Origin: Planctomycetota bacterium | GTDB lineage: Bacteria > Planctomycetota > J058 | Direction of reading: 5' to 3' | Length of the DNA: 64,000 nt | Assembly (NCBI GenBank): GCA_024711205.1 | Contig: JANJTH010000829.1 | Coordinates: 3,309-67,308 of the forward strand | Shown here: in pieces, positions 3,338 through 41,973 of the stretch | Layout of the letters: each line of letters begins with the position of its first letter | How positions within the stretch are numbered: the first letter of the stretch is position 1 | Notes under the pieces: generated by a model | What the model saw: only the letters and a program-made list of their open reading frames with translations | Databases searched by the model: none | What the model was told of the DNA's origin: nothing | Position numbers and translations under genes: made by a program

Positions 3338-3805
3338 TCAGGCGCGCGGCCGACGCAGCGCCTCGAGCTCGTCCACGGTCCGCGGCCAGTCGGCCTTGAG
3401 GAGGCGCGAGAGCGCGCGGTCCGCGAGCAGGCGCCCGCCGGTCTGGCACGTGGCGCAGTAGTTCGCCTCGTTCTGCGCGTAGACGATCCGCTGCACGGGC
3501 GTCGCGCACACGGGGCAGGGCTGGCGGTGCCGGCCGTGGACCGCGAAGCCCTCGCGGAACGCCGTGACGCCGGTCGGCAGCCCGTCGGGCGGCGCGGCGG
3601 CCCGCAGGCGGTCCGTCCACTCGCCCAGCACCGCGCACGCGGCGGCGAACAGGCGCGCCGTCTCGTCGGGCGCGAGCTGGTGGGTCTGACGGAACGGCGA
3701 CAGGCGCGCGCGGTGGAGGATCTCGTCGGAGTAGGCGTTGCCGATCCCCGAGAGCGTGCGCGGGTCGGTCAGCGCGCGCTTGTGCGTCCGCCAGGGAACC
3801 TCTAC
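3338..3805 (-). pseudogene. Truncated Fpg/Nei C-terminal fragment (H2TH and zinc finger only; catalytic N-terminal domain missing)
   Basis: 'LSGIGNAYSDEILHRARLSPF...' and the zinc finger 'CPVCATPVQRIVYAQNEANYCATCQTGG' align with the C-terminal half of the intact Fpg at 41047..41973 (~65% identity). Homology stops near nt 3805. The upstream part of the ORF (to 4066) is unrelated to Fpg. Confidence 0.6.
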
Positions 3806-3860
3806 CCCGTAGGGGTTCCCGGGCACGCGCTTCAGCGTGTGCCAGGGCACCCCTACCCGG
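3785..3860. repeat. Cluster of ~13-bp 'GGTAGGGGTGCCC'-like units in direct and inverted orientation at the fpg truncation breakpoint
   Basis: Minus strand reads CCGGGTAGGGGTGCCCTGGCACACGCTGAAGCGCGTGCCCGGGAACCCCTACGGGGTAGAGGTTCCCTGGCGG. Pattern is direct unit, inverted unit, direct unit. It sits exactly where Fpg homology ends. Confidence 0.45.
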
Positions 3861-4068
3861 GGTCCTCCACTTCTCGCGAGAGGACGTCGAGGAAGCTGCA
3901 CGGCGGCGCGGTCTCCGTCCGGCGTCCTAGCGTGGCCGATCTGCGGGCTTCGGAGAGCGGAGAGCTCGAGGACGGCGACGACCGGGCGCCCGTTCCGTCG
4001 GCCTCCACCAGGAGCATTGCTCGGCCGTGGGCACACGGGACGGACGGTGGGGAGTAGAGTCTCCAACC

Positions 4069-4539
4069 ATGGCGAGGGTCAGGCGGGACTCGGTTCTGAA
4101 GCGGGTGGGGTTGATCCTCGCCCTCCTTTGCCCGCTCGCCTGGCTCTACACCGGATGGCATCTGGCGGTCGAGTCGCACCACGATCACGAGGTCGAGGCT
4201 CACCGCCACGACCGCAGCCACGAGGACGATCACCACTCGGGTCGCGATCACGCCCACCAAGGTCACGACGACGACGACCGTCGCCCCGAAACGGACCACC
4301 ACCCCGACGAGGCGCCCCGCGAAGATCAGGGGCATCACCACGACGACCACCTGATCCCGGACTCGCTGCGACCCGAGCAGGGGCAGCCGTTCGCGATCGA
4401 CCTCACCGCGTCGGACGTAGTCCTCGTCGACTGGCACCCGGACGCCGCAGCTCCAGCGGCCGCTCCGTTCGACGACATCCCATCCGCGACCGACCCGCCG
4501 CTCGGATCGCTCCGGCCTCGCGCTCCTCCCGTCGGCTGA
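4069..4539 (+). CDS. His/Asp-rich small membrane-anchored protein, putative metal-binding
   Basis: One TM helix after 'MARVRRDSVLKRVGLILALLCPLAWLY', then 'HHDHEVEAHRHDRSHEDDHHSGRDHAHQGHDDDD...HHHDDH'. Lies immediately upstream of czcB. Confidence 0.45.
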   Translation: MARVRRDSVLKRVGLILALLCPLAWLYTGWHLAVESHHDHEVEAHRHDRSHEDDHHSGRDHAHQGHDDDDRRPETDHHPDEAPREDQGHHHDDHLIPDSLRPEQGQPFAIDLTASDVVLVDWHPDAAAPAAAPFDDIPSATDPPLGSLRPRAPPVG

Positions 4540-4621
4540 TCGCCCGTCCGCCTCGGACGCGGAGCGGCGCCGTCGCTTCGCCCGCGGACGGATCCCACGA
4601 TCCGCCACCACGGGAGATCCC

Positions 4622-6289
4622 ATGTCTGCCCTTCTGTACCCGCGCCGCCAGGGCCTGGCCGCGCTCCTTGCCGTCATCGTTCCTCTCACAGGTTGCCCCG
4701 CTTCCGACCACGGCCACTCTCATGGCCACGAGGAGGAGGAGCCGCGCACGGACGCCACGACCGTGCATAGCGGCCGCCATCAACTCTTCATCGAGCACCG
4801 GTTGCTCGTGGCCGGCACCGGCACGAAGTTCGTTACGCACGTCACCGACGACGTCACCGGTGAGCCGCGGCGCGAGGGGTCGATCACCTACGTCCTGCGC
4901 CTTGGCGACGGCGCGCCGACCGAGGTCACGGCCGAGAACCCGGACCGCGCTGGCATCTACGAGGTCATGCTCACGTTCCCGTCGACGGGCACCTGGCGCG
5001 TCAGCGTGAAGATCCCCTGGGCCGACGGCACTAACGAGGTCCCGCTCCCCGACCGGACGGTCTTCGCCACGGCCGAGGATGCGGCCAGGTCGCCCGAGGG
5101 CGAGGAGGTGAGTGGAATCTCCTTCCTCAAGGAGCAGGGCTGGAAGGTGCCGGTGATCGTCGAGCGCGCGAAGCGTCGTCCGCTCGTCGAACGCGTGCGT
5201 CTGCCCGGCGCGGTCGAGGCGCTGCCGTCCCGGCAGGCCTTCGTGACCCCGCCCGTGGCGGGCACGCTTCAGCCCCCGCTCGACGGCGCGATCCCGAAGC
5301 CGGGTGATCACGTCGACGCGGGTCAGGTCGTGGCGCTGCTGGTGCCGCCGTTGGCAGGGCCGGACTTGCTGGCCTTCCTCTCGGGCCGGCAACAGCTCGA
5401 GGCGCTGCGCGTCCAGCTCGCAACGCAGGAGGCCGAGGCCCGCGCTCGCGCAGAGCGTGGCACGGCGGTGCTGGAGCAGGCGCGGCGCGCCCACGCGCGC
5501 GTACGCGACCTGGCCGCGGAGAACGCGCGGTCGGCCCGAGAGCTCGAGGAGGCGGAGTCGGCCGAGCGCGTCGCCGCCGCGGAACAGGCGGCCGCGACGC
5601 GGCTGGCCGAGCTGCTGGCAGAGACCCGCGCGAACCTCGCGGGAGCCGGCGGCGACGCCGACCTCTCGAAGGGGCTGCCAGCGGTGCTGCTGCGCGCGCC
5701 AATCACAGGCTTCGTGTCGAGCGTCAATGCCTCGCGTGGCGAGCACGTGACGCCTGAGCGCGCGCTGCTCAGGATCGTCGACACCTCGGTCGTCGTGGTC
5801 GAGGCGCGCTTGCCCGAGGCGTCGGTCCGGCGCCTCGGCAAGGGCCGCAGCGCGTTCGCAGAGGCGCTCGACGCACAGGGCGAGCTGGCGCCGCTCACGG
5901 GAGAGGGCGTCGGCCGCTTCCTCTACGTCGGCCACGAGGTCGACGAGAGCACGCGCACCGTGCCGCTCGTGTGGGAGGTCCAGAACTTGAAGGGCACGCT
6001 CCGGCCGGGCCAGACGCTCGACATCCACGTCGAGACGAGCCGGACGGAGTCGGCGGTGGTGGTCCCGTCGTCGGCCTTGGTTGCCGAGGACGCCCGCTGG
6101 GTCGTGTTCGTCGAGGCGGCCGGCGAAACCTATCAGCGCCGCGACGTGACGCTCGGGATCCGCAGCGGCGACTGGGTCGAGGTCCGCTCGGGCGTGGCAG
6201 AGGGCGAATGGGTGGTGACCCACGGCGGACTCGCGATCCGCCTCGCCTCCGTGTCGAGCGTCATCCCCGCGCACGGGCACGCGCACTAG
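4622..6289 (+). CDS. czcB: HME-RND membrane fusion protein (CzcB/CusB family), lipoprotein with His-rich termini
   Basis: Lipobox 'LTGC'. 'SDHGHSHGHEEEE' at the N-terminus, 'PAHGHAH' at the C-terminus. Coiled-coil and beta-barrel MFP core. GGGAG ribosome-binding site. Stop is 3 nt before czcA. Confidence 0.9.
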   Translation: MSALLYPRRQGLAALLAVIVPLTGCPASDHGHSHGHEEEEPRTDATTVHSGRHQLFIEHRLLVAGTGTKFVTHVTDDVTGEPRREGSITYVLRLGDGAPTEVTAENPDRAGIYEVMLTFPSTGTWRVSVKIPWADGTNEVPLPDRTVFATAEDAARSPEGEEVSGISFLKEQGWKVPVIVERAKRRPLVERVRLPGAVEALPSRQAFVTPPVAGTLQPPLDGAIPKPGDHVDAGQVVALLVPPLAGPDLLAFLSGRQQLEALRVQLATQEAEARARAERGTAVLEQARRAHARVRDLAAENARSARELEEAESAERVAAAEQAAATRLAELLAETRANLAGAGGDADLSKGLPAVLLRAPITGFVSSVNASRGEHVTPERALLRIVDTSVVVVEARLPEASVRRLGKGRSAFAEALDAQGELAPLTGEGVGRFLYVGHEVDESTRTVPLVWEVQNLKGTLRPGQTLDIHVETSRTESAVVVPSSALVAEDARWVVFVEAAGETYQRRDVTLGIRSGDWVEVRSGVAEGEWVVTHGGLAIRLASVSSVIPAHGHAH

Positions 6290-6291
6290 CC

Positions 6292-9200
6292 ATGATCGAC
6301 GCGCTGATCCGCTTCGCGCTCCGCCAGCGCGCGGCGGTGCTCCTGCTCGCCGGCTTGCTCACGGCCGTCGGGGCCTACGTGGCCCGCGGCATGCCCGTGG
6401 ACGTCTTCCCCGACCTGACCGCGCCCACGGTCACCGTGATCACCGAGGCGCATGGCATGGCCCCGACCGAGGTCGAGGCCCAGGTCACGTTCCCCGTCGA
6501 GAGCGCGCTGAACGGCGCGGCCGGCGTGCGGCGAGTCCGTTCCGCGACCGCAGTCGGCATCTCCGTCGTGTGGGTCGAGTTCGACTGGGGCGTCGACATC
6601 ACGGTCGCGCGCCAGATCGTGAACGAGAAGCTGGCCCTCGCGGCCGCGACCTTGCCTCCCGAGGTGCGACCGACGCTCGCGCCCACCTCGTCGATCATGG
6701 GCGAGATCCTGTTCCTGGCGATCACGTCGGACCGCCACGGCCCCGCGGAGCTCCGGAGCACCGCGGAGACCGTGATCCGCCGGCGTCTCCTCGCGGTCCC
6801 AGGCGTTTCGCAGGTCACGCCGATCGGCGGCGAGGTCAAGGAGTATCACGTCACGCTCGCGCCCGCGCGCCTGCAGGCGCTGCGCGTCTCGCTCGGCGAC
6901 GTCGCCGACGCCCTCCGCGAGTCGAACGAGAACGTCTCCGCCGGCTTCCTCTCCGAGGGCGGATCGGAGCTGCTGATCACGGGCATCGGCCGCTTCCAGT
7001 CGGTCGAGGACATCGCCGCAACGGTCGTGACGACTCGCGACGGGATCCCAGTGCGCGTGGGTGACGTGGCCTACGTTGGAACCGGGGCCGCCCCCAAGCG
7101 CGGCGAGGGCTCAGCGAACGCCGAGAAGGCCGTGATCCTCGGCGTCCAGAAGCAGCCCGGCGCCAACACGCTGCTGCTCACGAACGCGCTCGACGAGGTC
7201 CTCGACGATGTCGCGGCACGCCTGCCGCAGGGCATGAGGATCGACCGGGAGGTGTTCCGGCAGGCGAACTTCATCGCCACGGCCGTCCACAACGTCGAGA
7301 TCGCCCTGCGCGACGGCGCGATCCTCGTCGTGCTCGTCGTGCTGCTGTTCCTCGGGAACGTCCGCGCCACGCTCGTGACGCTGACCGCGATCCCGCTCTC
7401 GCTGGTGGCCGCGATCCTCGTGCTGAGCGCGCTCGGGGCCACGATCAACACGATGACCCTCGGCGGCATGGCGATCGCGGTCGGGGCGCTGGTCGACGAC
7501 GCGATCATCGACGTCGAGAACGTCTTCCGACGACTCCGAGAGAACGGCGCGCGCCCGTCCGGCGAGCGCCGCTCGGCCTTCGACATCGTGCTCTCGGCGA
7601 GCGTCGAGATCCGCGGGTCGATCGTCTTCGCCACGCTGATCATCGTCTTGGTCTTCCTGCCCGTGTTCTTCCTCCCGGGCGTCGAGGGCCGGCTCCTCCG
7701 GCCGCTCGGCACGGCCTACGTCGTGTCGCTCGGGGCGTCACTGCTGGTCGCGATCACGGTCACGCCGCCCCTGTGCCTCCTGCTCCTGCCCCGGAGCAAG
7801 GCCGTCCAGGACGGCCGCGAGCCGCGCGTCGTGACCTGGACGCACAAGGCCTACGAGCCCGTGCTCAGGCGCGTGATCGACCGGCCGATGCTCGTGGCAG
7901 TCCCGGCTCTGCTGGCGTTCGTCGTGGCCGTGATCGGCGTCTCGCGGCAAGGCCGGGCCTTCCTGCCCGAGTTCAACGAGGGCGCGCTCACGATCAGCGC
8001 CGTCACGCTCCCGGGCACGTCACTCCGCGAGTCGGACGCACTCGGCCGCATCGTAGAGCGCGTGCTCCTCTCGCAGCCCGAGGTGACGTCGGTCGCGCGG
8101 CGCACCGGCCGCGCGGAGCTCGACGAGCACGCGCAGGGCGTCGAGGCCGCCGAGCTCGACGTGTCGTTCACGCTGAAGGAGCGCACGAAGGAGGAGTTCC
8201 TCGACGCGCTCCGCACGGGCTTCTCGACCGTGCCCGGCATGAACGTCACGATCGGCCAGCCGATCTCGCACCGCGTCGACCACATGCTCTCGGGCACGCG
8301 CGCGAACGTCGCCGTGAAGATTTTCGGCGACGACCTGTACCGCTTGCGCGACCTCGCCGAGCAGGCGCGCGCCGCGATGGCTGGCGTGGGCGGCGTGGTC
8401 GACCTGTCGGTCGAGCAACAGGCCGACGTCCCGACGTTGCTCGTCCGCATGGACCGGCCCGCAATGGCCCGGCGTGGCCTGCGCGTCGAAGACGTGGGCC
8501 ACGCGCTGGAGGCCTCGCTCCAGGGGCTGCCGGTGACGCGCGTGCTCGAAGGACGAGCCAGCTACGACGTCGTCGTGCGCGTCGGCGCGCTGGACGGCTC
8601 TGCATGGCGTAGCGACACGCTCGGCGACCTGTCGCTCGACGCGTCCGACGGCGCGAAGGTCCCGCTACGCTCGGTGGCGCTGCTCGCCCCGAGCACCGGG
8701 CCGAACCTCGTCAGCCGCGAGAACGTCGAGCGCAAGATCGTCGTCATGTGCAACGTCAGCGGCCGCGACGTGGCCTCGGTCGTGAACGACGTGCGGAAGC
8801 TCGTCGACCCGATCATCGGCGGCGCGAAGGGCTACCGCGTCGAGTACGGCGGTCAGTTCGAGGCCGCCGAGGCCGCGAACCGCATGCTCACGCTCCTCAG
8901 TCTCGGCGTGGTCCTCGGGATCGGCCTGATCCTGCACCTGGCCTTCGGCTCGGTGCGCGACGCGCTGCTCGTCATGCTGAACCTGCCGTTGGCGTTGATC
9001 GGCGGTGTGCTCGCCGTGGCGCTGACGGGCGGCGTGCTCTCGGTCGCCTCGCTGATCGGGTTCATCACCGTGTTCGGGATCGCCGCGCGCAACGGGATCA
9101 TGCTCGTGACGCACGTGCGCCATCTGCAGCTCGAGGAGGGCGTGACCTCGCTGCGCGAGGCCGTCCTCCGCGGGTCGACCGAGCGCGTGGCGCCCATCCT

Positions 9201-9483
9201 CATGACCGCGCTCGCCGCGGGTCTCGCCCTGATCCCGCTGGCGCTCGCCAGTGACGAGCCGGGCAACGAGATCCAGAGCCCCATGGCGGTCGTGATCCTG
9301 GGCGGGCTCATCAGCTCGACCTTGCTCAACATGATCGTGGTGCCTGCGGTCTACCTGCGCTTCGGTAGCCCGGCAGTCCGCGACGACGCGCCCGAGCCGG
9401 ACGAGTCGCCGGAAACGCCAGCTGCGCATCCGAGTGAACCGACATCCGAGCCCACGACCGAGCCGACCGGAGGTGCCGCGTGA
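6292..9483 (+). CDS. czcA: Heavy-metal efflux RND transporter (CzcA/HME family)
   Basis: Starts 'MIDALIRFALRQRAAVLLLAGLL', the canonical HME-RND start. 1063 aa with 12 TM segments and large periplasmic loops. C-terminus is Pro/Glu/Thr-rich. Confidence 0.95.
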   Translation: MIDALIRFALRQRAAVLLLAGLLTAVGAYVARGMPVDVFPDLTAPTVTVITEAHGMAPTEVEAQVTFPVESALNGAAGVRRVRSATAVGISVVWVEFDWGVDITVARQIVNEKLALAAATLPPEVRPTLAPTSSIMGEILFLAITSDRHGPAELRSTAETVIRRRLLAVPGVSQVTPIGGEVKEYHVTLAPARLQALRVSLGDVADALRESNENVSAGFLSEGGSELLITGIGRFQSVEDIAATVVTTRDGIPVRVGDVAYVGTGAAPKRGEGSANAEKAVILGVQKQPGANTLLLTNALDEVLDDVAARLPQGMRIDREVFRQANFIATAVHNVEIALRDGAILVVLVVLLFLGNVRATLVTLTAIPLSLVAAILVLSALGATINTMTLGGMAIAVGALVDDAIIDVENVFRRLRENGARPSGERRSAFDIVLSASVEIRGSIVFATLIIVLVFLPVFFLPGVEGRLLRPLGTAYVVSLGASLLVAITVTPPLCLLLLPRSKAVQDGREPRVVTWTHKAYEPVLRRVIDRPMLVAVPALLAFVVAVIGVSRQGRAFLPEFNEGALTISAVTLPGTSLRESDALGRIVERVLLSQPEVTSVARRTGRAELDEHAQGVEAAELDVSFTLKERTKEEFLDALRTGFSTVPGMNVTIGQPISHRVDHMLSGTRANVAVKIFGDDLYRLRDLAEQARAAMAGVGGVVDLSVEQQADVPTLLVRMDRPAMARRGLRVEDVGHALEASLQGLPVTRVLEGRASYDVVVRVGALDGSAWRSDTLGDLSLDASDGAKVPLRSVALLAPSTGPNLVSRENVERKIVVMCNVSGRDVASVVNDVRKLVDPIIGGAKGYRVEYGGQFEAAEAANRMLTLLSLGVVLGIGLILHLAFGSVRDALLVMLNLPLALIGGVLAVALTGGVLSVASLIGFITVFGIAARNGIMLVTHVRHLQLEEGVTSLREAVLRGSTERVAPILMTALAAGLALIPLALASDEPGNEIQSPMAVVILGGLISSTLLNMIVVPAVYLRFGSPAVRDDAPEPDESPETPAAHPSEPTSEPTTEPTGGAA

Positions 9484-10814
9484 AGATGAACAGTCAAGTC
9501 CTCACCCTCCTCGTCGCGGCCTCGCTGGCCGCCTGCGCTCCCGAGCCGCGGCCCGCGGACGAGTCGACGTCGACGCCGACGCCGGCCCGGCCGACTCCAA
9601 CGCCGCCGTCCTCGGGAGCACCCGGAAGCTCCGTGGCCGAGCTCGAGAGCATGACGCTCACGCAGGCCCTCGCGTTCCTCGATGCGCACCATCCAGAGCT
9701 CGACGGGTTCCGCCGGCAGGTCGAGGCCGCGTCCGAACGTGCCGAGGCGGCGGGTGCGCTCCCAGCGCCGGTGGCGATCGTGCGCGCCGAGAACGTGCCG
9801 CTCCATCGCGGGCGCTCGCTGGACCAGGGCAACTACATCGCGGGGCTCGCCTTCTCCCTCCCCCTCCAGGGGCGCCTCGGCGCCGCGCGGAGCGTCGAGG
9901 AGCGGGAGGGCGAGCTCGTGTCGCGCACGCTGGAGCAGCGACGGCACGAGCTCCTGCGCGGCGCGCGCGACGCGTTCGTGATGGCCATGGCCGCGACACG
10001 CGCCGCCGCACTCAACGAGGACGCGGCCCTCGCCGTCGAGACCACGGCCGCGCTCCTCGAACGACGTGTCGCCCGCGGCGACCTGACGCCAGACGAGGCG
10101 ACCTGGGCCGCGATCGAGGCCGCGCGCTCTCGCCTGGACGCCGAGCACAGCCGCTCGCAGGCGCGCCGCGCGCTCGCGCGGCTCGCCCAGGCGCTCGGCT
10201 CGGACCGCCCGATCGCCTCGGTCGCGGGCGACCTCGACGAGACCGCCGGCGCGCCCGAGCTTGCCGCGCTCCTCCGCCGCGTCGAGGACGCGCCCGCCGT
10301 GCGCCACGCCGACGCCACCGTCACGCTGCGTGAGGCGGCCCTCGAACTGGCGCGCGCCGAGCGCATCCCCGACGTGCGGCTCGAGCTGGCCTACCGCCGG
10401 CTCGAGCAGACCGACCAGCACGCGGTCGACGCCGGGATCGAGGTGCCGCTGCCGTTCCTCGGCGGCACGAGCGCCCGCGCGCGCGCGGCGCTGTTCGACC
10501 TGGAGGCCGCGCGCGCTCGCGCGACCGCCGCGCGGCTCGAAGCCACGCGCGACGTTCAGGACGCCTACGAGCGGCTCGCCACGGCCGTCCGCATCGCGGA
10601 GAGCCTGCGGGAGCTGCTACCCCGCGTCGAGCAGGCCCTGGCCGCGGTCTCGGCGCGGCTGAACCGCGGCGACATCAGCGCGCTCGAGGCGCTCCCGGCG
10701 CGGCGGCTCGCCGTCTCCATGCGCCTTGAGCACGTCGCGGCGCTGGGCGAAGCCTTGCGAGCCTGGGCCGATCTCGACGCGGCGCTGGGTCGAGGGCTCG
10801 ACCGGATGCCGTAA
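9480..10814 (+). CDS. czcC: Outer-membrane efflux factor (TolC/CzcC family), lipoprotein
   Basis: GTG start overlaps the czcA stop by 4 nt. GGAGG ribosome-binding site 6 nt upstream. 'LVAASLAAC' lipobox. Two-repeat OMF helical architecture. Gene order is czcB-A-C. Confidence 0.85.
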   Translation: MKMNSQVLTLLVAASLAACAPEPRPADESTSTPTPARPTPTPPSSGAPGSSVAELESMTLTQALAFLDAHHPELDGFRRQVEAASERAEAAGALPAPVAIVRAENVPLHRGRSLDQGNYIAGLAFSLPLQGRLGAARSVEEREGELVSRTLEQRRHELLRGARDAFVMAMAATRAAALNEDAALAVETTAALLERRVARGDLTPDEATWAAIEAARSRLDAEHSRSQARRALARLAQALGSDRPIASVAGDLDETAGAPELAALLRRVEDAPAVRHADATVTLREAALELARAERIPDVRLELAYRRLEQTDQHAVDAGIEVPLPFLGGTSARARAALFDLEAARARATAARLEATRDVQDAYERLATAVRIAESLRELLPRVEQALAAVSARLNRGDISALEALPARRLAVSMRLEHVAALGEALRAWADLDAALGRGLDRMP

Positions 10815-10844
10815 GGCCGTGGGCTCCGCCCGCCGGACGCGAGG

Positions 10845-11150
10845 TCACCGCCACCAGCCGTGGTGACGATCGCGGCGGGAGTGGTGATCGTGGCGCTCGT
10901 TCGAGCGCCCATGGTCCCGATGGTCGTCGCGATGGAAGCGCGGGGCCTGGTGATGCCGATCCGGGGTCTGCCACCGGCGGTCCTGGTGCCCGCGGTCGTG
11001 GCGATCGGGCTGGGGGCGCTGAGGCGCGCGGTGATCGCGGTGCTGGGTCTGCGGCCCATGGAACCGGTCCTGAGCCTGGGCGCTGGTCACGCCCGCGCCG
11101 AACAGCAGCGCGAACACTGCGCCGAGGCCGAAGAGTCGGGGGCGAGTCAT
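10845..11150 (-). CDS. Small secreted His/Arg/Asp-rich protein, putative periplasmic metal-binding
   Basis: Signal peptide 'MTRPRLFGLGAVFALLFGAGVTSAQA'. Mature part is 'DRFHGPQTQHRDHRAPQRPQPDRHDRGHQDRR...HHSRRDRHHGWWR'. Confidence 0.45.
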   Translation of the reverse strand: MTRPRLFGLGAVFALLFGAGVTSAQAQDRFHGPQTQHRDHRAPQRPQPDRHDRGHQDRRWQTPDRHHQAPRFHRDDHRDHGRSNERHDHHSRRDRHHGWWR

Positions 11151-11309
11151 TGGCTTCTCCTCTGCGACCGGTCGCTCTCGAGCGAGGTCACGCACTCTTG
11201 GACGAAGGGGCGGACCTGATCTTCAAGGGCCCTTCGTGGCCGTGCGGCCGGAGGCCGCCTTGCAGGCTGCGCCGCGGGGCATGGTCGTCCCATCCAACAT
11301 CACCGAGCG

Positions 11310-12203: not shown

Positions 12204-12274
12204 GCTCCAGCTCCGAAGAGATGGAGCATGGCAGGCCGGTCCGACATGGCCGGTCAGACGGCGCGTGTCGATCG

Positions 12275-34598: not shown

Positions 34599-34683
34599 TG
34601 TCACCCAGCGACCCGGGCGTGCGCCCGGGTCGCTCGCTTTCCGGCAGCGAGGGAATGGGCCCTCGCCTTCACGAGGAGAGTCG

Positions 34684-35391
34684 ATGCGAGCTCGTCATCG
34701 TTTCGGAGCGATCGTCCTGGCCTCGTCGCTGGCCCTCTCGGCCAGCGCCGTCGTCCAGGCCGACGACACCCCTGGTGCTCAGCAAACGGGAGCCGCGGCC
34801 GTCAACATGGCCCAGCTCAACGTCGAAGGGATGACGTGACCCGGCGGCTGAGGCGCTAAAGTCTCACGAGCCCTGGAAGGGCTCGCCGGCGTTTCGCGTG
34901 TGACCCCACACGATCAGAAGAAGTTCGACGTTCAGTACGACCCTGCCCGCGTCACCCCGCAACAGCTCCTGGCGGCGGTGCAAGGACTCGGTTATCGGCC
35001 CACGGTCGACGGTCCGATCAGCGCGATCGCGGACACCAGCGCCGTGGCCATCAAGGCCAAGGCAGGTGCGGCCGGCCATGCGGCCGGCGCGACGGGCGAG
35101 GTCGTGGTGAAGCTCAGCCCGAAGGCGGGGAACCGCCTGGGCGGCGAGGGACAGGTCGCGACGAAGGTCGTCGTGACCGGCACCGACATGGTGCAGGTCC
35201 CCAACGGAGAGGTCCGCGTGGCGGAGGCCCTCTCGGCCGACCGCGAGGTGAAGATCCCCATCCGGATCAAGGATGGCGCCACCGCTGGAGAGCAGGTCGT
35301 CGTCGTCCGCGTCACGTTCCAGGCTCGCAGCGGCGACACGAGCGCCGCCGAGCAGACGATCGAGCTGCGCATCCCGGTCGTCATCCAGTAA
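34684..35391 (+). CDS. Periplasmic HMA-domain (MerP/CopZ-like) protein with both metal-binding Cys positions encoded by in-frame TGA; candidate selenoprotein, otherwise a pseudogene
   Basis: AGGAG ribosome-binding site 5 nt upstream. Signal peptide 'MRARHRFGAIVLASSLALSASAVVQA'. The sequence '...AVNMAQLNVEGMT-TGA-PGG-TGA-GAKVSRALEGLAGVSRVTPHDQKKFDVQYDP...LAAVQGLGYRP' aligns residue for residue with the MerP 'GMTCxxC...VEGVSKVDV...' fold. A hairpin GAGCCC-UGGAA-GGGCUC starts 15 nt after the second TGA. Confidence 0.5.
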
Positions 35392-35439
35392 CGCGTTCGC
35401 CAGGCCACGACGCCCAGAGCGTCGTGGCCTGGCGGCGCT

Positions 35440-36378
35440 TCAGGCGTGGCCCTGGCCGTCTCCGCTGCATGGCCGCGCGGTGAGCCGGACGGCGTTCACG
35501 AACTCCTCCAGCAGCGGGGTCAGGACCTTGTCCTTGTGCCGGACGACCAGGAGCTGACGCCGGATCTCGAGGCCCGGCACCCGCAACGTCCTGAACCCGC
35601 CGCCCTGCTTCGGCAGGCCCTGACACGAGCTCATCGCCACCCCGACGCCGGCGGCGACCAGGCGCTTGATCGCCTCCGGGCAGGCAAGCTCGATCACGTG
35701 CCTGAGGGCGAGCCCTCTGCCAGCGAGCCAGGCCTCGAACGTCCGTCGCGTCGCCGAGCCGGCCTCGCGAGTGATGAAGGTCTGCTCCACGAGCTGCTCG
35801 GGCCGTATGCGGCGCGCTCGTGCGAGCGGATGGGTTCGCGCCGCGTAGACGAGAACCTCGTCCCCGACGAGCGGCTCGGCCTCGAGGTCCGTGTTGACCA
35901 GGTGACCACCGACGAAGCCGACGTCGAGCTCATTACGAAGGAGGGCCTCTTCGATCGCGAGCGTGTTCGCCAGCCTGAATTCGAGCTTGGCCCCCGGGCG
36001 CTCGCGGAGGAACCGACCCAGGGCGGGGGGAAGGACATACAGCCCCGGCGTCGAGCTCGCGCCGATGCGAAGGCGGCCAGCGGCGCCGCCGCGGAGCCCT
36101 TCGAGCACCTCTCCGGCCCGTGCGAGGTCGCCGCGAAGCTGTTGCGCCTCGCGCAGGAACGCTTGTCCGGCATCGGTCAGCGCGAGCGACTTCCCGAGCT
36201 GCTCGACGAGACGCACGCCTGTCGCACGATGGAGGGCCTGCATCTGCCGCGAGACGGCGGGCTGCGTGAGGAACAGCGCCTCCGCCGCGCGCGTGTAGTT
36301 CAGGTGTTCAGCGACGGCGAGGAAGGTGGCGAGCCAGGACGGCGTCAGCGCTTCCCAACCTGCTCTCATGATCCCCAT
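35440..36378 (-). CDS. LysR-family transcriptional regulator
   Basis: N-terminal HTH 'LATFLAVAEHLNYTRAAEALFLTQPAVSRQMQALHRATGVRLVEQ'. LysR substrate-binding fold. Divergent from the methyltransferase gene. Confidence 0.85.
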   Translation of the reverse strand: MGIMRAGWEALTPSWLATFLAVAEHLNYTRAAEALFLTQPAVSRQMQALHRATGVRLVEQLGKSLALTDAGQAFLREAQQLRGDLARAGEVLEGLRGGAAGRLRIGASSTPGLYVLPPALGRFLRERPGAKLEFRLANTLAIEEALLRNELDVGFVGGHLVNTDLEAEPLVGDEVLVYAARTHPLARARRIRPEQLVEQTFITREAGSATRRTFEAWLAGRGLALRHVIELACPEAIKRLVAAGVGVAMSSCQGLPKQGGGFRTLRVPGLEIRRQLLVVRHKDKVLTPLLEEFVNAVRLTARPCSGDGQGHA

Positions 36379-36444
36379 GAAGACTATTCATATCCCGCAT
36401 GGCACCCGGAGGTCCATGATCGAAGGAGCAAAGGAGGGACGACG

Positions 36445-37089
36445 ATGATCGCCGAACCCGCGCTGGACCTCCGTTCCCACTGGGAGAGCGTCTACCTCGA
36501 GAAGGACGAGGACGACCTCAGCTGGCACCAGGACGACCCCGCTGCGTCCTTCTCGTCCGTGACAAAGCACTGCTCCCGTGGAGGGCGGGTCCTCGACGTC
36601 GGCGGAGGCACGTCCCAGCTCGCCAGCCGGTTGGTGGCCGAGGGCCTCGACGTGACCGTCGTCGACCTCTCCGGCGCGGCGCTCCGCCGAGCGCAGGAGC
36701 GCTCCGGTCCGCACAGGACGTCCATCCGCTGGGTGGTCGCCGACGTCTGCGGCTCGGCCTGGCCAGTGTCCTGCCCCTTCGACGTGTGGCACGACCGCGC
36801 GGTCTTCCACTTCCTCTCCGAGCCCGAGCAGGTCCAGGCCTATGTTCGCCGCGTGCGGGAGTGCGTCAGGCCAGGCGGTCACCTCGTGATCGCCACCTTC
36901 GGCCCGGACGGTCCGGAGCAGTGCAGCGGGCTACAGGTCCAACGGTACGACGCCGCGGGCCTCGCGGCGCCGTTCCGACTGGCCGGCTTCACCGCCGTGG
37001 AGTCCTTCCGCGAGGTGCACAACACACCCTGGGGCGCCGAGCAGCCGTTCGTGTACGTCGTCCTCCGGGCGGCCGGCGAGTCGCCATGA
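36445..37089 (+). CDS. Class I SAM-dependent methyltransferase
   Basis: AAGGAGGG ribosome-binding site. 'VLDVGGGTSQLASRLVAEGLDVTVVDLS' is a methyltransferase motif I. Confidence 0.75.
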   Translation: MIAEPALDLRSHWESVYLEKDEDDLSWHQDDPAASFSSVTKHCSRGGRVLDVGGGTSQLASRLVAEGLDVTVVDLSGAALRRAQERSGPHRTSIRWVVADVCGSAWPVSCPFDVWHDRAVFHFLSEPEQVQAYVRRVRECVRPGGHLVIATFGPDGPEQCSGLQVQRYDAAGLAAPFRLAGFTAVESFREVHNTPWGAEQPFVYVVLRAAGESP

Positions 37090-37313
37090 CCGGCGAGCAG
37101 GCGCTGGCGCTCGACGCGGCGCGCCGTTGGTGCGAGGAGCGCGCAGCGGTCGTGCGGTGGGATGAGGGTGAGAGCCGTTGCCAGATCCGGGTGGCCGCCC
37201 CATCCGGCGCGGGCTCGATCGAGGGAGAGGGCGCGGGCTTCTACGAGGCGTACGTCGAGTGCCGGGTACGCTATGACGCCGCGGCGCCCGGCGGCCCACC
37301 GAGCCACTTCTAG
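37086..37313 (+). CDS. Small hypothetical protein, start overlaps the methyltransferase stop (ATGA)
   Basis: 75 aa. No recognisable family. Confidence 0.3.
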   Translation: MTGEQALALDAARRWCEERAAVVRWDEGESRCQIRVAAPSGAGSIEGEGAGFYEAYVECRVRYDAAAPGGPPSHF

Positions 37314-37442
37314 GCCCGCGTGGCGATTAGGTCATTGCACAGCTCGGCCGGTGACCACGGCATGCGCTCCAAGGTGTTCGTAGCGACGAGGGCGAGACGG
37401 GTGCCCCGCGGGTGCACTCGCGACGCGTGCTACGGTCACATC

Positions 37443-37799
37443 ATGGAGACCACGCTGTCGCCTCTCCGCGTCTTCCCGCTCTTTGTCCTCACCGCGTGCG
37501 CCGAGATCGTCGGCTGCTACCTGCCCTACCTGTGGCTGCGGAAGGAGAAGCCCATGTGGCTCCTCCTTCCTGCCGCGCTCTCCCTCGCGGTCTTTGCGTG
37601 GCTGCTCACGCTTCATCCCACGGCGGCAGGTCGCACCTACGCCGCCTACGGCGGGGTGTACGTGGCGACCGCCATCGCGTGGCTCTGGCTCGTCGAAGGG
37701 CAGCGACCTGACCGGTGGGACATCATCGGCGCGGCCGTCTCGATCTTCGGCATGGTGATCGTCGCCTTCGGCCCGCGGCCACCCGCTCCCCCGGCTTGA
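37443..37799 (+). CDS. ynfA: YnfA/UPF0060-family small membrane protein
   Basis: '[87 protein letters not shown]' is the four-TM YnfA signature. Confidence 0.7.
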
Positions 37800-37870
37800 C
37801 TCCGTTCCCTGGTACAGGGCGTAGGCTGACCCGCCGTGATCGGGCCCAGCTGCCGAGCGGAGCGCGTGCG

Positions 37871-38317
37871 ATGAGGTGGATCATGACGATCTTCGTGGTC
37901 GCGCTCGCGGGCTGCCCAGGGGAGTCCGGACAGCGCGAAGGCGGAGCGCGAACCTCCGAGCCAGTCACCCCGGCGCCGGTGCAGAGCTCGGCGCCCCCTG
38001 CGCCGCCCGAGGACGAGTGTGTCTGCTCGCTCTCCGCGGGTGAGCTCTCGGAGCGCGAGAAGTGGCTCTCGTCCTTCGCGTCCGGGGCCAGTCAGCTCCG
38101 GGAGGTACCGGACGGCTTCGAGTGCCGGTTCCCGAGCACCTGGGGCGCACGGCTGCTCGACCTCGTCGAGAAGGAGCGCGCCTGCTGCTCCTCCCTCACG
38201 TTCGCGCTGCAGTTCGAGCCGGAGAGCGGTCCGATCGTCCTCCGTTGCCGCGGGCCCGTGGCGGCAGTGTCGTTCATCAGATCTCGACTCGTCGTGGAGC
38301 AAGCCCGTCGGCCGTAG
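37871..38317 (+). CDS. Hypothetical Cys-containing lipoprotein
   Basis: Lipobox 'VVALAGCPG'. Pro-rich linker. 'CVCSLS...FECRF...ERACCSS...LRCRG'. Confidence 0.45.
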   Translation: MRWIMTIFVVALAGCPGESGQREGGARTSEPVTPAPVQSSAPPAPPEDECVCSLSAGELSEREKWLSSFASGASQLREVPDGFECRFPSTWGARLLDLVEKERACCSSLTFALQFEPESGPIVLRCRGPVAAVSFIRSRLVVEQARRP

Positions 38318-38395
38318 GCCCTCGCCACGCCGACCGCGTCCTCGATCACCGCGGGTCGACGGGATCGGAAGCGGCCGGAGCGCAGCCCCTCCGCT

Positions 38396-39166
38396 TCATG
38401 CCTTGCCCAGCTTGAGGCGGATCGTGCGTGTCTCGCCGCCAACCGTGCGCACGAGCAGGGTGAACTCCTGTCCCGCGGGGATCGCCCCGACGGCGGAGAT
38501 CAGCCGATCGGGCCCCTCGATCGTCTGACCGTCGATGCCTAGGATCGTCATGCCGGCTTCGAGGCCGGCCGCGGCGACGGGGGCGCCCGGCGTGACGGAC
38601 TCGATCGAGATCGACTTCTTGTCCTCGGAGAGCTTGAGGCGTAGCCCGAGGAAGTCGTCGCCGCCGCCGGTGTCGCCGAGCTGGAAGCGGCCCCTGCAGC
38701 CCACGCAACAGAAGTAGTAGGTCTTCCCGTCCTTCTCCAGGGAGATCTCCGGGTTGACCCGCGAGCCGCGGAAGACCGGGCAGTAGAGGTAGTCGGTCGT
38801 GTGGGCGTCGAACGTCCGCGCGTTCTCCTCACTGGCGAATTGGAACGTCACGCCGTTCGCCGTCCGCGTCGCCACCGCGACGGCTGGGTCGAGCAACGTC
38901 CTCGAGACCGGGTCGAACCCCTGCGACGGCGCGTCACCGCTCCCCACCGCCGCCGTGTCCCAGCCCGACGCGCAGCAGGCCGTCTGGTGCCCGGCGCCCG
39001 AGAACGGCGACGAGCCGGGACCGCACGCCGGGTCCTCGCAGCTCTGACCCATGCACGACGCCTCCGCAGGAGCGTCGGCCGACGCCCCACAGCGCATGCT
39101 CCGGAGGCCGACGGCCCCCGCCCCGAACACAGCCGCAGCGACCAGCGTGACGACGGTCCTGTTCAT
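38396..39166 (-). CDS. Secreted YHS/TRASH-like metal-binding domain protein with a C-terminal PDZ domain
   Basis: Signal peptide. Cys-rich 'CMGQSCEDPACGPG...QTACCASGW'. 'GVTFQFASEENARTFDAHTTDYLYCPV...YYFCCVGCRGRF' is YHS/TRASH-like. 'SISIESVTPGAPVAAAGLEAGMTILGIDGQTIEGPDRLISAVGAIPAGQEFTLLV' is a PDZ domain. Lies 4 nt downstream of the merT fusion. Confidence 0.7.
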   Translation of the reverse strand: MNRTVVTLVAAAVFGAGAVGLRSMRCGASADAPAEASCMGQSCEDPACGPGSSPFSGAGHQTACCASGWDTAAVGSGDAPSQGFDPVSRTLLDPAVAVATRTANGVTFQFASEENARTFDAHTTDYLYCPVFRGSRVNPEISLEKDGKTYYFCCVGCRGRFQLGDTGGGDDFLGLRLKLSEDKKSISIESVTPGAPVAAAGLEAGMTILGIDGQTIEGPDRLISAVGAIPAGQEFTLLVRTVGGETRTIRLKLGKA

Positions 39167-39170
39167 GGGA

Positions 39171-40070
39171 TCACTCCTTCTCGTGCGAGGCGCACGACGG
39201 GCAGGGGGCCGGACGCGACGCGTCCGCGGGGCTGGTCTCGCCGACGACGAGACCAGCGAAGCTCGGGAACGCCGCGAAGCCGATCACGACGACGACCGCG
39301 GTCCAGAGCATGACCTTGTTGAACGCCAGCAGGCCGGAGCCCGGCGCCTCGCACGAGCCGTCCGGCGAGCATTCGACCTTCCGGTAGGTCAGACGGAACG
39401 CGACGGCGAGGAGGAGCCCGGCCGCCCCGAGCAGCCAGGGACGATGGGCGTCGAGGAAGCCCGCGACGCCGCCGGCCGAGACGCCGAACGCGACCAGGGC
39501 CAGCGGGAGCCAGCAGCAGGCCGACGACAGGATCGCCGAGGCCATAGCGCCCGCTGCCGCCAGCGTCCCGGCCCCGCCCCGCCCCGTCGGCGGGGGAGTC
39601 GCGGCGCGGGAGTCGCCCTCCGGCTCCCCCTGACCCTGGAGCGCACGTCGCTCCACGGCACGGACGTTCCCAAGGCAGCAGCTCCCCTGGGGGTTCGTCT
39701 CGGCGCAACGATCGAACTCGCGCCGGCACTGCTCGGTGATCGTGTCCGCGATCGTCGATGCGCCGGTGCGAGCGATCTCCGCCTCGATGTCCTCGGCGGT
39801 GTGGCCGAAGCAGTAGCAGAGCGGCCGCGGAGCCGCGGACTCCTTCGTCCCGATGCGCACGCTCACGTCCGAGGACGCGACGCGGTCGCCAGACTCGGGA
39901 TGGTAGTACGCCGTCGCGCAGCCCGCCGCAGGGCAGTGCCTCCAGCCCTCCGTGCAACCGAACGAGCCCAACGCAGCCGGCGTCAAGAGCGCCTGCACCG
40001 TGACCGCCCGCACCGGCTTCCCGCCTGCGCCGCAGCCCGGGCACACGGTGGCCGTCGCGGCCTGGCTCAC
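39171..40070 (-). CDS. merT: MerT-like mercuric-ion transporter fused to an N-terminal cytoplasmic Cys-rich domain (zinc-ribbon plus BFD-like CxC...C)
   Basis: C-terminal half 'LSSACCWLPLALVAFGVSAGGVAGF...RLTYRKVECSPDGSCEAPG' matches the MerT CC pair in TM1 and the C-x5-C loop with identical spacing. N-terminus has 'CPGCG...', 'CYCFGHTAEDIEAEIARTG', 'CRREFDRC...GSCC'. GTG start overlaps the merR stop (GTGA). Confidence 0.75.
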   Translation of the reverse strand: MSQAATATVCPGCGAGGKPVRAVTVQALLTPAALGSFGCTEGWRHCPAAGCATAYYHPESGDRVASSDVSVRIGTKESAAPRPLCYCFGHTAEDIEAEIARTGASTIADTITEQCRREFDRCAETNPQGSCCLGNVRAVERRALQGQGEPEGDSRAATPPPTGRGGAGTLAAAGAMASAILSSACCWLPLALVAFGVSAGGVAGFLDAHRPWLLGAAGLLLAVAFRLTYRKVECSPDGSCEAPGSGLLAFNKVMLWTAVVVVIGFAAFPSFAGLVVGETSPADASRPAPCPSCASHEKE

Positions 40071-40486
40071 GTGCCGACCTTCGTGGCCTTGCCGCTCCGC
40101 TCGTCGAGCACGTCGAGAATCGGGCACTGGCTCTTCAGGTCGGTGGCGCCGCACTGCTCCACCAGCCGCCCGAGCGCGCGCTTGAACGACCGCAAGGTGC
40201 GGAGCTTCTCGTCGATGTCCTTGAGCTTCGCCTCGGCCAGCTCCCGGACGTCCGAGCACGTCGTCGTGCGGGACACGCGGAGCGCCAGCAGCTCGTCGAT
40301 CTCCTTCAGGGTGAAGCCGAGGGCCTGCGCCTGCTTCACGAAGCTCAGGCGGCGGACGTCGTCCGCGTCGAAGTCGCGGTACCCGACCTTGCCGGGACGC
40401 GGGTCGGGCAGCAGGCCGCGCCGCTCGTAGTAGCGGACCGTCTCGACCCCCACGCCGCACGCCTTGGCCAGCTCGCCGATCGTCAT
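40067..40486 (-). CDS. merR: MerR-family metalloregulator with Hg-type cysteine triad spacing
   Basis: Canonical N-terminus 'MTIGELAKACGVGVETVRYYERRGLL'. Cys at positions 77, 112 and 121. Spacing of 35 and 9 is identical to Tn501 MerR C82/C117/C126. The promoter places the transcription start near this ATG, so the mRNA is leaderless. The upstream in-frame ATG (40498) lies inside the -10 element. Confidence 0.85.
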   Translation of the reverse strand: MTIGELAKACGVGVETVRYYERRGLLPDPRPGKVGYRDFDADDVRRLSFVKQAQALGFTLKEIDELLALRVSRTTTCSDVRELAEAKLKDIDEKLRTLRSFKRALGRLVEQCGATDLKSQCPILDVLDERSGKATKVGT

Positions 40487-40494
40487 GCCGAGGA

Positions 40495-40525
40495 GCATAC
40501 GGTCCGTACCTAGGTACGGGGTCAA
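40495..40525 (-). promoter_or_regulatory. MerR-type promoter: -35 TTGACC, 20-bp spacer holding a perfect 16-bp palindrome CCGTACCTAGGTACGG, -10 TATGCT
   Basis: Minus strand reads cTTGACCCCGTACCTAGGTACGGACCGTATGCTcctcggcATG. The long spacer with a dyad operator is the MerR-family hallmark. Confidence 0.6.
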
Positions 40526-40637
40526 GGGACAATCGGCAGAGCGTAGAGCTGCGCGGGTATCAGGGCAGGGGTTGAGCACGATCGAGCATCATGGGCACGC
40601 GGCGCGACGATCTTCCACAACGCGCCGAGGAGCTGTC

Positions 40638-40979
40638 ATGCCGAACGGATGGTGGGACTGGACGCCGAGCTGGAGCGAGAAGGCGCTCGACGACACGATC
40701 GCGCTCTGGGAACCGAAGTACCAGGAGCGTGACCCGAGCGTGAAGCTCACCCGCGAAGACGCGCGGGAGATCCTCACGAACCTCCACGGGTTCTTCGGGC
40801 TCCTCTCCAAGTGGGATGCCCAAGAGAAGGAGAAGCTCGCGAGCGCCGGTCCGCACGAACCGGGCGCCTCGGCCGAGGCGCCGAGCTCGTCGCCGATGCC
40901 CCCAGCGGATCGACCGAAGACGGCCGAGAAGAAGGCCCCGCGTCGGAGGCCACGGCGGAGCCAACCGCCAGGCGGATGA
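40638..40979 (+). CDS. Hypothetical Trp-rich small protein in a lower-GC stretch
   Basis: GAGGAG ribosome-binding site 5 nt upstream. 'MPNGWWDWTPSWSEKALDDTIALWEPKYQERD...'. Confidence 0.4.
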   Translation: MPNGWWDWTPSWSEKALDDTIALWEPKYQERDPSVKLTREDAREILTNLHGFFGLLSKWDAQEKEKLASAGPHEPGASAEAPSSSPMPPADRPKTAEKKAPRRRPRRSQPPGG

Positions 40980-41046
40980 CCGGCGCCGTGCGCGGGGAGC
41001 CCCGGGCCTTGCCGTGGCGGATGCGGATGCCAGCATCAAGCGGGTC

Positions 41047-41973
41047 ATGCCCGAGCTCCCCGACGTCGTCGTCTACATCGAGTGCCTCGAGCGGCGCGTC
41101 GTCGGGCAGAAGCTCGAGCGCGTGCGGATCGCGAGCCCGTTCGTCCTGCGCTCGGCCGACCCGCCGATCAGCTCCGCCGAGGGGAAGTCGGTCCGCGAGG
41201 TCCTGCGCCTCGGGAAGCGGATCGTCTTCGTGCTCGAGGACGACCTGTTCCTCGTCCTGCACCTCATGATCGCGGGCCGCCTCGCGTGGGCCGACCGCGG
41301 CGCGAAGATCCCCGGGAAGATCGGCCTCGCGGCGCTCGACTTCACGACCGGGACGCTGATCTTCCGCGAGGCCAGCACGAAGAAGCGCGCCTCGATGCAC
41401 CTGGTCCGCGGCGAGGACGGGCTCCGGCAGTTCGACCGCGGGGGCCTCGAGGTCCTGACCGCGAAGCTCGCCGACTTCCGGGCGGTCCTCGCTCGCGAAA
41501 ACCATACGATCAAGGTCGCTCTCGTCGATCCGACGCTCTTCAGCGGCATCGGCAACGCCTACTCCGACGAGATCCTCCATCGCGCGCGCCTCTCGCCCGT
41601 GAAGCTCACGTCGCGCCTCACACCCGACGAGACGAAGACGCTGTTCAAGGCCACGAAGGACGTCCTGGAGGAGTGGACCGAGCGCCTGCGCGGCGAGGTG
41701 GGCGAGGGCTTCCCCGACAAGGGCGTCACCGCCTTCCGCGAGGGCATGGCCGTCCACGGCCGGTACAAGCAGCCCTGCCCCGACTGCGGGTCGCCGGTGC
41801 AGCGCATCGTGCGCGGCGACCACGAGACGAACTACTGCGCGACGTGCCAGACGGGCGGCAAGCTCCTCGCCGACCGCGCGCTGTCGAAGCTCCTCAAGGC
41901 CGACTGGCCGAAGACGCTCGAGGAGCTCGAGGAGCGCATGCCGCGAAGCGCTCCGCCTACAGCGAAGCGTTAA
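41047..41973 (+). CDS. fpg: Formamidopyrimidine-DNA glycosylase (Fpg/MutM), full length
   Basis: 'MPELPDVVVYIECL' catalytic N-terminus (Pro2, Glu3). H2TH 'FSGIGNAYSDEILHRARLSP'. Zinc finger 'CPDCGSPVQRIVRGDHETNYCATCQTGG'. Confidence 0.9.
   Translation: MPELPDVVVYIECLERRVVGQKLERVRIASPFVLRSADPPISSAEGKSVREVLRLGKRIVFVLEDDLFLVLHLMIAGRLAWADRGAKIPGKIGLAALDFTTGTLIFREASTKKRASMHLVRGEDGLRQFDRGGLEVLTAKLADFRAVLARENHTIKVALVDPTLFSGIGNAYSDEILHRARLSPVKLTSRLTPDETKTLFKATKDVLEEWTERLRGEVGEGFPDKGVTAFREGMAVHGRYKQPCPDCGSPVQRIVRGDHETNYCATCQTGGKLLADRALSKLLKADWPKTLEELEERMPRSAPPTAKR

Follow-up and report, generated by a model that had tools for sequence, protein, structure and literature searches.

A metal-resistance island probably inserted by a large serine recombinase into a host Fpg/Nei-family gene of a Planctomycetota bacterium

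The 64,000-nucleotide stretch of DNA analyzed here (the window; contig JANJTH010000829.1 of a Planctomycetota bacterium) contains a truncated and an intact fpg gene of the Fpg/Nei glycosylase family, separated by about 37 kb of mostly metal-related genes. We consider it very probable that a metal-resistance island of ~71.5 kb, inserted by a large serine recombinase (LSR), split a host Fpg/Nei-family gene, and that the truncated fpg is the scar of this event. The LSR would have inserted the island at a CA dinucleotide formed by the last base of a Leu codon and the first base of a Lys codon. The attachment site attR would remain at 3760-3805, beside the displaced 3' half of fpg, and attL, the 624-aa LSR gene and the 5' half of fpg would sit ~11 kb past the window end, on a 10.6-kb Logan contig (L027). 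The intact fpg would travel on the island, compensating for the broken host gene, and a 37-kb block would have been gained later (or lost in relatives) in the spacer of 55-60 bp that separates the island fpg from the island terminus. That the island extends beyond the fpg pair follows from L027, because the N-terminal half of fpg abuts the LSR there and joins the window fragment without a gap.

When the intact protein was used as the query, tblastn identified exactly two Fpg-like stretches in the window, in line with the original prediction. The right stretch (41047-41970, 100% identity) is the query itself, and the left one (3787-3335, minus strand) matches residues 154-303 of the query with 67% identity (E=2e-60), a value slightly above the ~65% estimated before. 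The Pfam domains agree with the earlier description of a 3' half and a full-length gene: all three domains are present in the right copy, and the left copy has the H2TH and zinc-finger domains and lacks the N-terminal domain. The two copies had been described as pointing toward each other; in fact, the left fragment is encoded on the minus strand and the right, intact gene on the plus strand, which makes them divergent, with their 5' ends toward the cargo. As the prediction had also stated, the homology of the fragment stops abruptly at a repeat cluster. Here, a 23-nt unit, GTAG(G/A)GGT(G/T)CCC(T/G)GGC..CGC., is present in three copies of alternating orientation; no further copy was found in the window, and shuffled sequences gave no match at all. 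The features of the two fpg loci are the following:

3338..3782, minus strand: 3' half of the host fpg, from the Lys codon to the stop, with H2TH and zinc finger (tblastn, Pfam), cut at the Leu/Lys codon boundary of the RTLK motif
3760..3805, minus strand: attR, consisting of host arm B' (3760-3780), the crossover (3781-3782; TG on the plus strand, CA in the fpg sense) and island arm c (3783-3805)
3783-3805, minus strand: repeat copy c
3809-3831, plus strand: repeat copy b
3834-3856, minus strand: repeat copy a
3809..3856, no strand assigned: second attP-like palindrome, intact, with arm b (3809-3831), centre TC/GA (3832-3833) and arm a (3834-3856)
41047..41973, plus strand: intact island copy (fpg_e), Fpg/Nei-family glycosylase of 308 aa with three domains and an N-terminal PELPDV motif (Pfam)

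Searches inside the window for the N-terminal half of fpg, an LSR gene and extra half-sites found none, and no tRNA genes are present within it. We then scanned species-representative genomes with the half-site motif, which gave one true match out of 17, the contig L012 of a Planctomycetota metagenome-assembled genome (MAG); a metagenome scan added L025 only, and a viral scan nothing. On L012, half-sites b and c come after an fpg N-half that ends in …ARENHTVK, and the 3' end of an LSR gene comes next. With the L012 LSR as query only four close relatives were obtained, one of which, P0122, is 87% identical. P0122 is recorded on an NCBI contig of 80,934 bp, the length also given for the contig of the window fragment (P0001) and the window hemB (P0130), and L027 encodes exactly this LSR. 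The LSR proteins of L012 and L027 contain the Resolvase (PF00239), Recombinase (PF07508) and Zn_ribbon_recom (PF13408) domains; the LSR matches the phrog_95 integrase (1e-50) and is <30% identical to any member of the phage and plasmid collections.

The first domain encoded on L027 is Cation_ATPase_C; it belongs to a P-type ATPase of which the window end encodes the N-terminal and E1-E2 domains, and this split gene implies a gap of ~1.2-1.3 kb. We infer with considerable confidence that the window continues into L027. The order on this contig is Cation_ATPase_C, a ResIII helicase, a helix-turn-helix (HTH) protein, a 657-aa protein, two small open reading frames (ORFs), the LSR gene (8187-10061, 624 aa) and the fpg N-half. 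The latter lies on the opposite strand directly after the LSR stop codon (LSR-TGA / N-half) and ends in …ALARENRTL. Together with the C-half of the window it gives an Fpg of 302 aa that is collinear with full-length homologues, without a gap or indel where ARENRTL meets KRALTDP. The idea that an island had integrated into fpg is well supported by these data, and the recombinase, which had not been seen in the window and for which a place beyond it had been one of two options, is indeed found past the window end. With attL at about position 10059 of L027, the island length is (64000-3782) + ~1250 + 10059 = ~71.5 kb, with bounds of 70.3-76.6 kb derived from the 80,934-bp contig. All window DNA to the right of 3783 would then be island, corresponding to its left ~60 kb.

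Several properties are those of a genomic island, i.e. a compositional break at 3783, presence/absence polymorphism, accessory cargo (which differs among the window, L001 and L032) and an LSR at the far end. The GC content is 0.79 over 1-3782 versus 0.71 to the right of 3783, and the GC content at third codon positions (GC3) is 0.96-0.99 for hemB, the hydrolase gene and the fragment versus 0.80-0.96 for the cargo. Moreover, attL and attR are B/P' and P/B' hybrids that share the crossover dinucleotide, as is characteristic of LSR elements. Readings of the junction repeats as Tn7-like ends (TGT...), Tn3 inverted repeats, an integron attC site or a miniature inverted-repeat transposable element with target-site duplication were rejected because of the alternating orientation of the repeats, their arrangement as arms around 2-bp centres and the position of the partner junction beside a serine recombinase.

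The presence of two paralogous sequences, one of them incomplete, had also been read as an old duplication of fpg in which one copy is decaying to a pseudogene, and any mobility as possibly ancient. Such a duplication, tandem or inverted, is next to impossible in view of the data. The missing half of the fragment is intact elsewhere, where it abuts a recombinase, and joins it seamlessly. The fragment contains neither stops nor frameshifts across 150 codons and has a host-like GC3 of 0.98; the mobility does not have to be ancient. The two window copies belong to different Fpg lineages: with homologues of the KRALTDP type the fragment reaches 77-79% identity, versus 67% with fpg_e, which itself is 92-94% identical to the L001 copies. 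Two other truncated Fpg homologues, P0002 and P0070, share the unusual N-terminus of the fragment, in which GV(G/E)VPW precedes HTLK or RTHK.

The extent of the variable cargo was determined by comparison with related elements. L001 and L002, the contigs of P0002 and P0070, and L025 from the metagenome scan share with the window the junction and ~80 bp beyond it. Three contigs from a related host (L032, L033 and L034) are 93-95% identical to window positions 1-3932, which cover hemB, the hydrolase gene, the fragment, attR and the island terminus, with identical gene order in the host flank; they lack 3933-41002. On these contigs, the island fpg (90.6% identical to that of the window) starts ~59 bp past the terminus, and a 5'-nucleotidase gene, not a helicase gene, is located after it. 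L001 contains an intact fpg that is 92% identical at the nucleotide level to window 41003-41942 and is located ~125 bp from the truncated copy, in divergent orientation; L001 position 9991 aligns to window 3935, and 9993 to window 41003. Overall, fpg_e is 90-92% identical in nucleotide sequence to the fpg beside the island end in L001 and L032, and the island fpg is 55-60 bp from the same island end in four contigs (L001 and L032-L034). One breakpoint of the cargo indel follows a stop codon by 2 nt and the other is 44 bp short of the fpg_e ATG, which gives the following segments:

214..3318, minus strand: host flank with hemB (214-1311) and a PGAP1-like alpha/beta hydrolase gene (1915-3318) (Pfam; GC 0.79, GC3 0.96-0.99)
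3857..3930, plus strand: conserved island terminus, in frame with the LSR ORF in the circle and encoding ...GVLHFSREDVEEAARRRGLRPAS (circle reconstruction)
3933..41002, plus strand: variable cargo block of 37.07 kb (Pfam; breakpoints by alignment to L001 and L032)
41003..41046, plus strand: conserved 44-bp leader of fpg_e, located directly after the stop of the LSR extension in L001 and L032

We searched the block edges for a target-site duplication or inverted repeats; no clear duplication and no transposase were seen, and the flanks (3931-3945 and 41012-41030) share only an imperfect direct repeat of 8-10 bp, CGTGGCCGAT / CGTGGCGGAT. The comparison points to the 37-kb block as a cargo indel inside the island (a later gain, or a loss in relatives), and to the intact fpg as a conserved island gene and not a border, with divergence as the native layout. 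The absence of 3933-41002 from a related host with a 93-95% identical flank answers the presence/absence comparison that the original prediction had proposed, and the pattern that would have indicated an ancient vertical core, both fpg copies with the same intervening genes, is not what the relatives show, since they have both copies and lack those genes.

The same comparison bears on the proposal that the fpg pair marks the two ends of a ~37-kb island at an fpg paralogue, with a later inversion. The absence of 3933-41002 from the related host and L001, and the inverted orientation of the copies, would fit it. However, the true partner of the fragment (N-half, attL and LSR) is ~71 kb away, the intact copy has no junction at its att-equivalent site, and the indel breakpoints are located in the spacer and not in fpg. 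Elements that lack the block have an identical divergent layout, which leaves no role for an inversion, and metal genes continue to the right of the intact fpg up to 64 kb, so that the pair does not bracket the acquired region. We regard this proposal as very improbable. Hardly credible, in our opinion, is a site-specific inversion switch in which the fpg promoter and N-half would be turned from one C-terminal half to the other. In L001 and L032, an intact gene is again found head to head with a silent 3' cassette, and palindromic recombinase sites are present at the cassette boundary, but the intact gene lacks island-type half-sites at the corresponding position, the N-half belonging to the cassette is present at attL, and no recombinase adjoins the fpg pair. 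Moreover, the attL and attR product sites of LSRs are reported to be inactive as substrates without a directionality factor.

Integration of an island by an LSR remains our preferred explanation, and the junctions define its attachment sites. Written in the fpg sense, they are:

Window, attR: c-CA-B'
L027, attL: B-CA-c'
L031, attL: B-CA-c' (…ENRTL)
L030, attL: B-CA-c' (…ENHTI)
L012, attL: B-GA-b, then an intact c-CA-c'
L001, attR: a-GA-B'
Window, L002/L025 and L032, beside attR: intact a-GA-b
Predicted attP-c junction, written with TG (not the CA of the fpg sense) at the centre: …GCATCCGCC-TG-TGCGTCCGCCAGGG…

The L027 attL combines host arm GAGAACCGGACGCT with island arm GGCGGATGCGAGGGAACCGATAC, and the reconstructed attB reads …GAGAACCGGACGCT CA AGCGCGCGCTGACC…. 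The c-CA-B' attR of the window recurs in L002, L025 and L032. In total, the codon boundary of the window is shared by independent attR junctions in L001, L002/L025 and L032-L034 and by independent attL junctions in L031 and L030. Two sites of the attP type can be distinguished. The a/b site is 48 bp long with a GA centre and is symmetric at 20 of 23 positions; the c/c' site has a CA centre and is symmetric at 16 of 23 positions, and its c' arm constitutes the last eight codons of the LSR gene. On the element, 51 bp separate the two centres. Elements that used c (window, L002 and L032) have kept a/b intact, and L012, which used b, has kept c/c' intact. Both sites have been used in nature, in different elements. 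An origin of a-GA-b-GGG-c as a scar followed by re-integration was rejected, as L027 shows a direct B-CA-c' junction without b-c.

In all cases, the crossover dinucleotide consists of the third base of a Leu, Val or Ile codon and the first base of a Lys codon, within a conserved (H/R)T(L/I/V)K motif. Targets with GTG-AAG have the GA centre, and those with CTC-AAG or ATC-AAG the CA centre. The element would therefore possess two adjacent attP-type sites, either of them usable, that match target codons ending in G or in C, respectively; this role in matching is consistent with every junction seen. LSR sites are described as 40-50 bp long with a centre sequence that decides partner compatibility, and the size of the present sites (48-50 bp), their inverted arms and their non-palindromic centre would fit these properties.

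A more restrained version accepts the integration but takes the a/b palindrome as a relic or regulatory site, with c/c' as the only functional attP and the A/T-ending codons and the ORF extension described below as by-products. Four of the five attL junctions do use c', and use of a/b is documented by L012 and L001 only. On the other hand, L012 has B-GA-b together with an intact c-CA-c' beside an 87-91% identical LSR, L001 has the complementary a-GA-B', and a/b is better conserved and more symmetric than c/c'. We think this version unlikely, though it deserves serious consideration.

The use of the same core outside fpg was observed on L028 (JGI Ga0495315_0003308), where an LSR of 76% identity has inserted into a gene other than fpg at 11860-11900; the product of that gene ends in …IYQLLFQHRTLK/R (…QHRTLK/R; slash, cut). 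This junction has the CA centre and the ACCCTCAAGCG core of the fpg junctions, which indicates that target choice follows the DNA core and not the gene. Chance matches to the motif were obtained in four JGI soil contigs (L022, L023, L024 and L026), which carry an unrelated, identical segment of ~150 bp bounded by the inverted repeats GTGTAGAGGTGCCCGGGC … GCCCGGGCACCTCTACAC. In the literature, we found no relevant report of fpg/mutM as an LSR target or of natural tandem or dual attP sites.

The position of attP relative to the recombinase gene is unusual as well. In the excised circle, reconstructed by linking the end of the LSR gene to the window sequence at the crossover, the LSR frame runs on for 57 codons through attP (…GIGSLASA-CASAREPLPRRGSRARASACARAPLPGVLHFSREDVEEAARRRGLRPAS*), ending at the TAG at 3928-3930. 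The consensus of this tail, from window 3857-3930 and L027 10035-10061, is GVLHFSR[EQ]DVE[ED]AARRRGLR.AS*. Substitutions in the terminus 3857-3930 at first, second and third codon positions number 1, 0 and 9 versus L001, 0, 0 and 3 versus L002, and 1, 0 and 6 between L001 and L002. Moreover, the indels of 6 and 12 nt in the terminus (L001, L002 and L032) keep the LSR frame, and the stop is kept in the window, L001 and L032. These patterns argue that 3857-3930 is under coding constraint in the LSR frame. Where integration occurred via c/c' (L027, L030, L031 and L028), the LSR ends at a TGA composed of the crossover TG and a host A. Integration would thus swap out the last ~57 LSR residues, with the c/c' route creating an immediate TGA stop.

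A backbone beside the recombinase is common to L027 1292-7631, L028 2485-9313 and L012 4364-7343 and consists of one or two small ORFs, a ~657-716-aa protein without a family match and an HTH regulator, to which L027 and L028 add a ~900-aa ResIII helicase. The small ORFs upstream of the LSR (60 and 78 aa) are candidates for a directionality factor.

The reconstructed host Fpg and fpg_e both start with (M)PELPDV and match PF01149, PF06831 and PF06827; their full-length scores against TIGR00577 (NCBIfam), 133 (fpg_e) and 124 bits, are under the 203-bit equivalog cut-off, so both are family-level members and not canonical MutM/Fpg equivalogs. The island gene contains a site equivalent to attB:

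41490..41535, plus strand: attB-equivalent site in fpg_e, …GCT CGC GAA AAC CAT ACG ATC / AAG GTC GCT CTC GTC GAT… (slash, crossover position)

Although the GC3 of fpg_e is 0.96, five of its 12 A/T-ending codons (GCT, GAA, CAT, GCT and GAT) are clustered within 13 codons at this site (hypergeometric P=4e-5), and the same clustering is present in the fpg_e copies of L001 (P=9e-4) and L032. The targeted host genes have GCC/GCG, GAG and CAC at those positions. We tentatively propose that fpg_e has been synonymously recoded at its own site, possibly avoiding self-targeting. As for its function, fpg_e most likely compensates for the destroyed host gene. The truncated fpg halves on L001 (10091-10543) and L002 (1072-1548) belong to the island type, their aa identity to fpg_e being 92% and 84%, respectively. 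This suggests that the fpg of an element already in residence can serve as a target for a new arrival, leading to tandem accretion of islands.

Taken together, these features might define an undescribed family of LSR elements with a three-part strategy: dual GA/CA attP sites that fit both GC-rich synonymous options (NNG or NNC) for the Leu/Val/Ile codon of HT(L/V/I)K and so double the host range, C-terminal ~57 residues encoded across attP such that the full-length enzyme is made only from the circle (an integration/excision switch), and a replacement fpg with a recoded attB that keeps repair and limits self- and tandem re-targeting. We put this forward with reserve, as a rather less than even prospect.

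Several observations weigh against parts of this interpretation. The recombinase and attL lie outside the window, and the link between the window and L027 is based on the shared record size of 80,934 bp and the split ATPase gene. Neither an empty site nor an excised circle was found in the data reached, all three contigs of the related host being occupied; two more distant hemB relatives (73-74% identity) have no fpg nearby and lack the hemB-fpg synteny, and therefore provide no empty site. No conjugation or phage genes were recognised in the island parts seen. Only two junctions (L012 and L001) document use of a/b. The truncated island-type copies of L001 and L002 carry the recoded B' arm, so the recoded arm is still targetable, which weakens the immunity idea, and compensation by fpg_e stands as a proposal.

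The metal genes in 3933-41002 are three czcCBA-like RND systems, a P-type ATPase gene, chrA, a merT/copZ-like gene and merR (Pfam). The earlier statement that everything between the fpg copies is metal cargo, apart from two islets of lower GC, holds for most of these genes, but the block also contains genes for a response regulator, a sulfatase-family protein and a methyltransferase, ynfA, a YHS-PDZ gene and several ORFs without a Pfam match. The first cargo gene (4027-4539) encodes a His/Asp-rich protein of 170 aa without a Pfam match; its start is shared with L002, where an extra 154-aa gene is located between the island end and the homologue of this protein. A 45-bp tandem repeat (2.6 copies, 93% identity) occupies 20278-20396, in the interval that separates the second RND pump from the sulfatase-family gene; one of its frames is His/Asp/Gly-rich (HKDGDGHDHGKAEPG) and may encode a metal-binding tail. 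In the host flank, the closest named hemB homologues are from Planctomycetota MAGs, with <=76% identity. To the right of fpg_e, the island continues as follows:

42072..45365, plus strand: ResIII/DEAD helicase-family protein, 1097 aa (Pfam), in the stretch of lowest GC (0.65-0.66)
45366..64000, plus strand: further island DNA with marR, a GDSL lipase gene, an RND system, an ECF sigma factor gene and P-type ATPase genes (Pfam)
50707-57398: fourth RND system (Pfam)
60631-63039 and 63076 to the window end: P-type ATPases (Pfam)

The helicase has a weak PADLOC match to PbeA (3.6e-13), a weak match to a dnd-restriction model and similarity to the phrog_16 helicase. Its long C-terminal half is uncharacterised. 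The helicase gene, which is not conserved in the related elements, may serve in defence as part of the island cargo. The fourth RND system is flanked by inverted paralogous stretches (45741-46220 and 58470-58943) with 75-78% nucleotide identity, located in two unannotated genes for periplasmic-looking proteins.

These results convert an ambiguous pair of fpg paralogues into precise island ends, with the crossover resolved to single bases, and imply that, in an uncultured lineage of high GC content, a site-specific mobile island carries a large load of multi-metal resistance. Recombinase biology and genome engineering gain a divergent LSR whose attP and attB sequences are defined. In addition, the element may provide natural dual attP sites with different central dinucleotides and a serine-integrase counterpart of the C-terminal switch of Mx8 IntP/IntX, and it would represent a different way for an island to offset target disruption, by carrying a whole, recoded paralogue.

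Genes are known to be split by LSR elements at sigK (skin), comK (A118) and groEL1 (Bxb1). Prophage SPbeta is reported to split spsM via the LSR SprA (PMC5499854). Like such prophages and islands, the present element has an LSR with Resolvase, Recombinase and zinc-ribbon domains, an attP of ~48-50 bp in which inverted arms surround a 2-bp centre that is not palindromic, an integration site in mid-ORF and a recombinase gene abutting one att site. It differs from SPbeta-type elements in targeting an Fpg/Nei glycosylase gene, in bringing along a second, complete copy of this target where those elements leave it broken until excision, in having two tandem attP-like sites and in the distance of its LSR from those in the phage and plasmid collections. 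As in the islands in tRNA/tmRNA genes (Islander, PMC4383910) and dusA (PMC4482086), a conserved gene is split, the displaced fragment marks one end and island sequence preserves the function. However, those islands use tyrosine integrases and supply only the missing gene end, in direct orientation at the junction, whereas the present island brings a whole, separately transcribed paralogue that diverges from the fragment and can be located at a distance of 55 bp to 37 kb from the end. In myxophage Mx8, attP lies inside int, and the recombinant gene formed on integration acquires a new 3' end (IntP/IntX; PMC6070905). The crossover within the 3' end of the integrase ORF is similar, but Mx8 Int is a tyrosine recombinase with a tRNA-linked attB, whereas here the enzyme is a serine recombinase and integration via c/c' merely truncates it at a TGA. 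For phiC31, engineered attP/attB pairs with altered central dinucleotides are reported to recombine only with the matching partner (PMC3936721). Unlike those synthetic pairs, natural GA and CA sites are found here 51 bp apart, each used against a target with a codon that ends in the matching base. An LSR island that splits a protein-coding gene is of a known kind, as exemplified by SPbeta and spsM; the fpg target, the whole target copy, the tandem attP sites, the integrase ORF split by attP and the divergent LSR are what set the present island apart.

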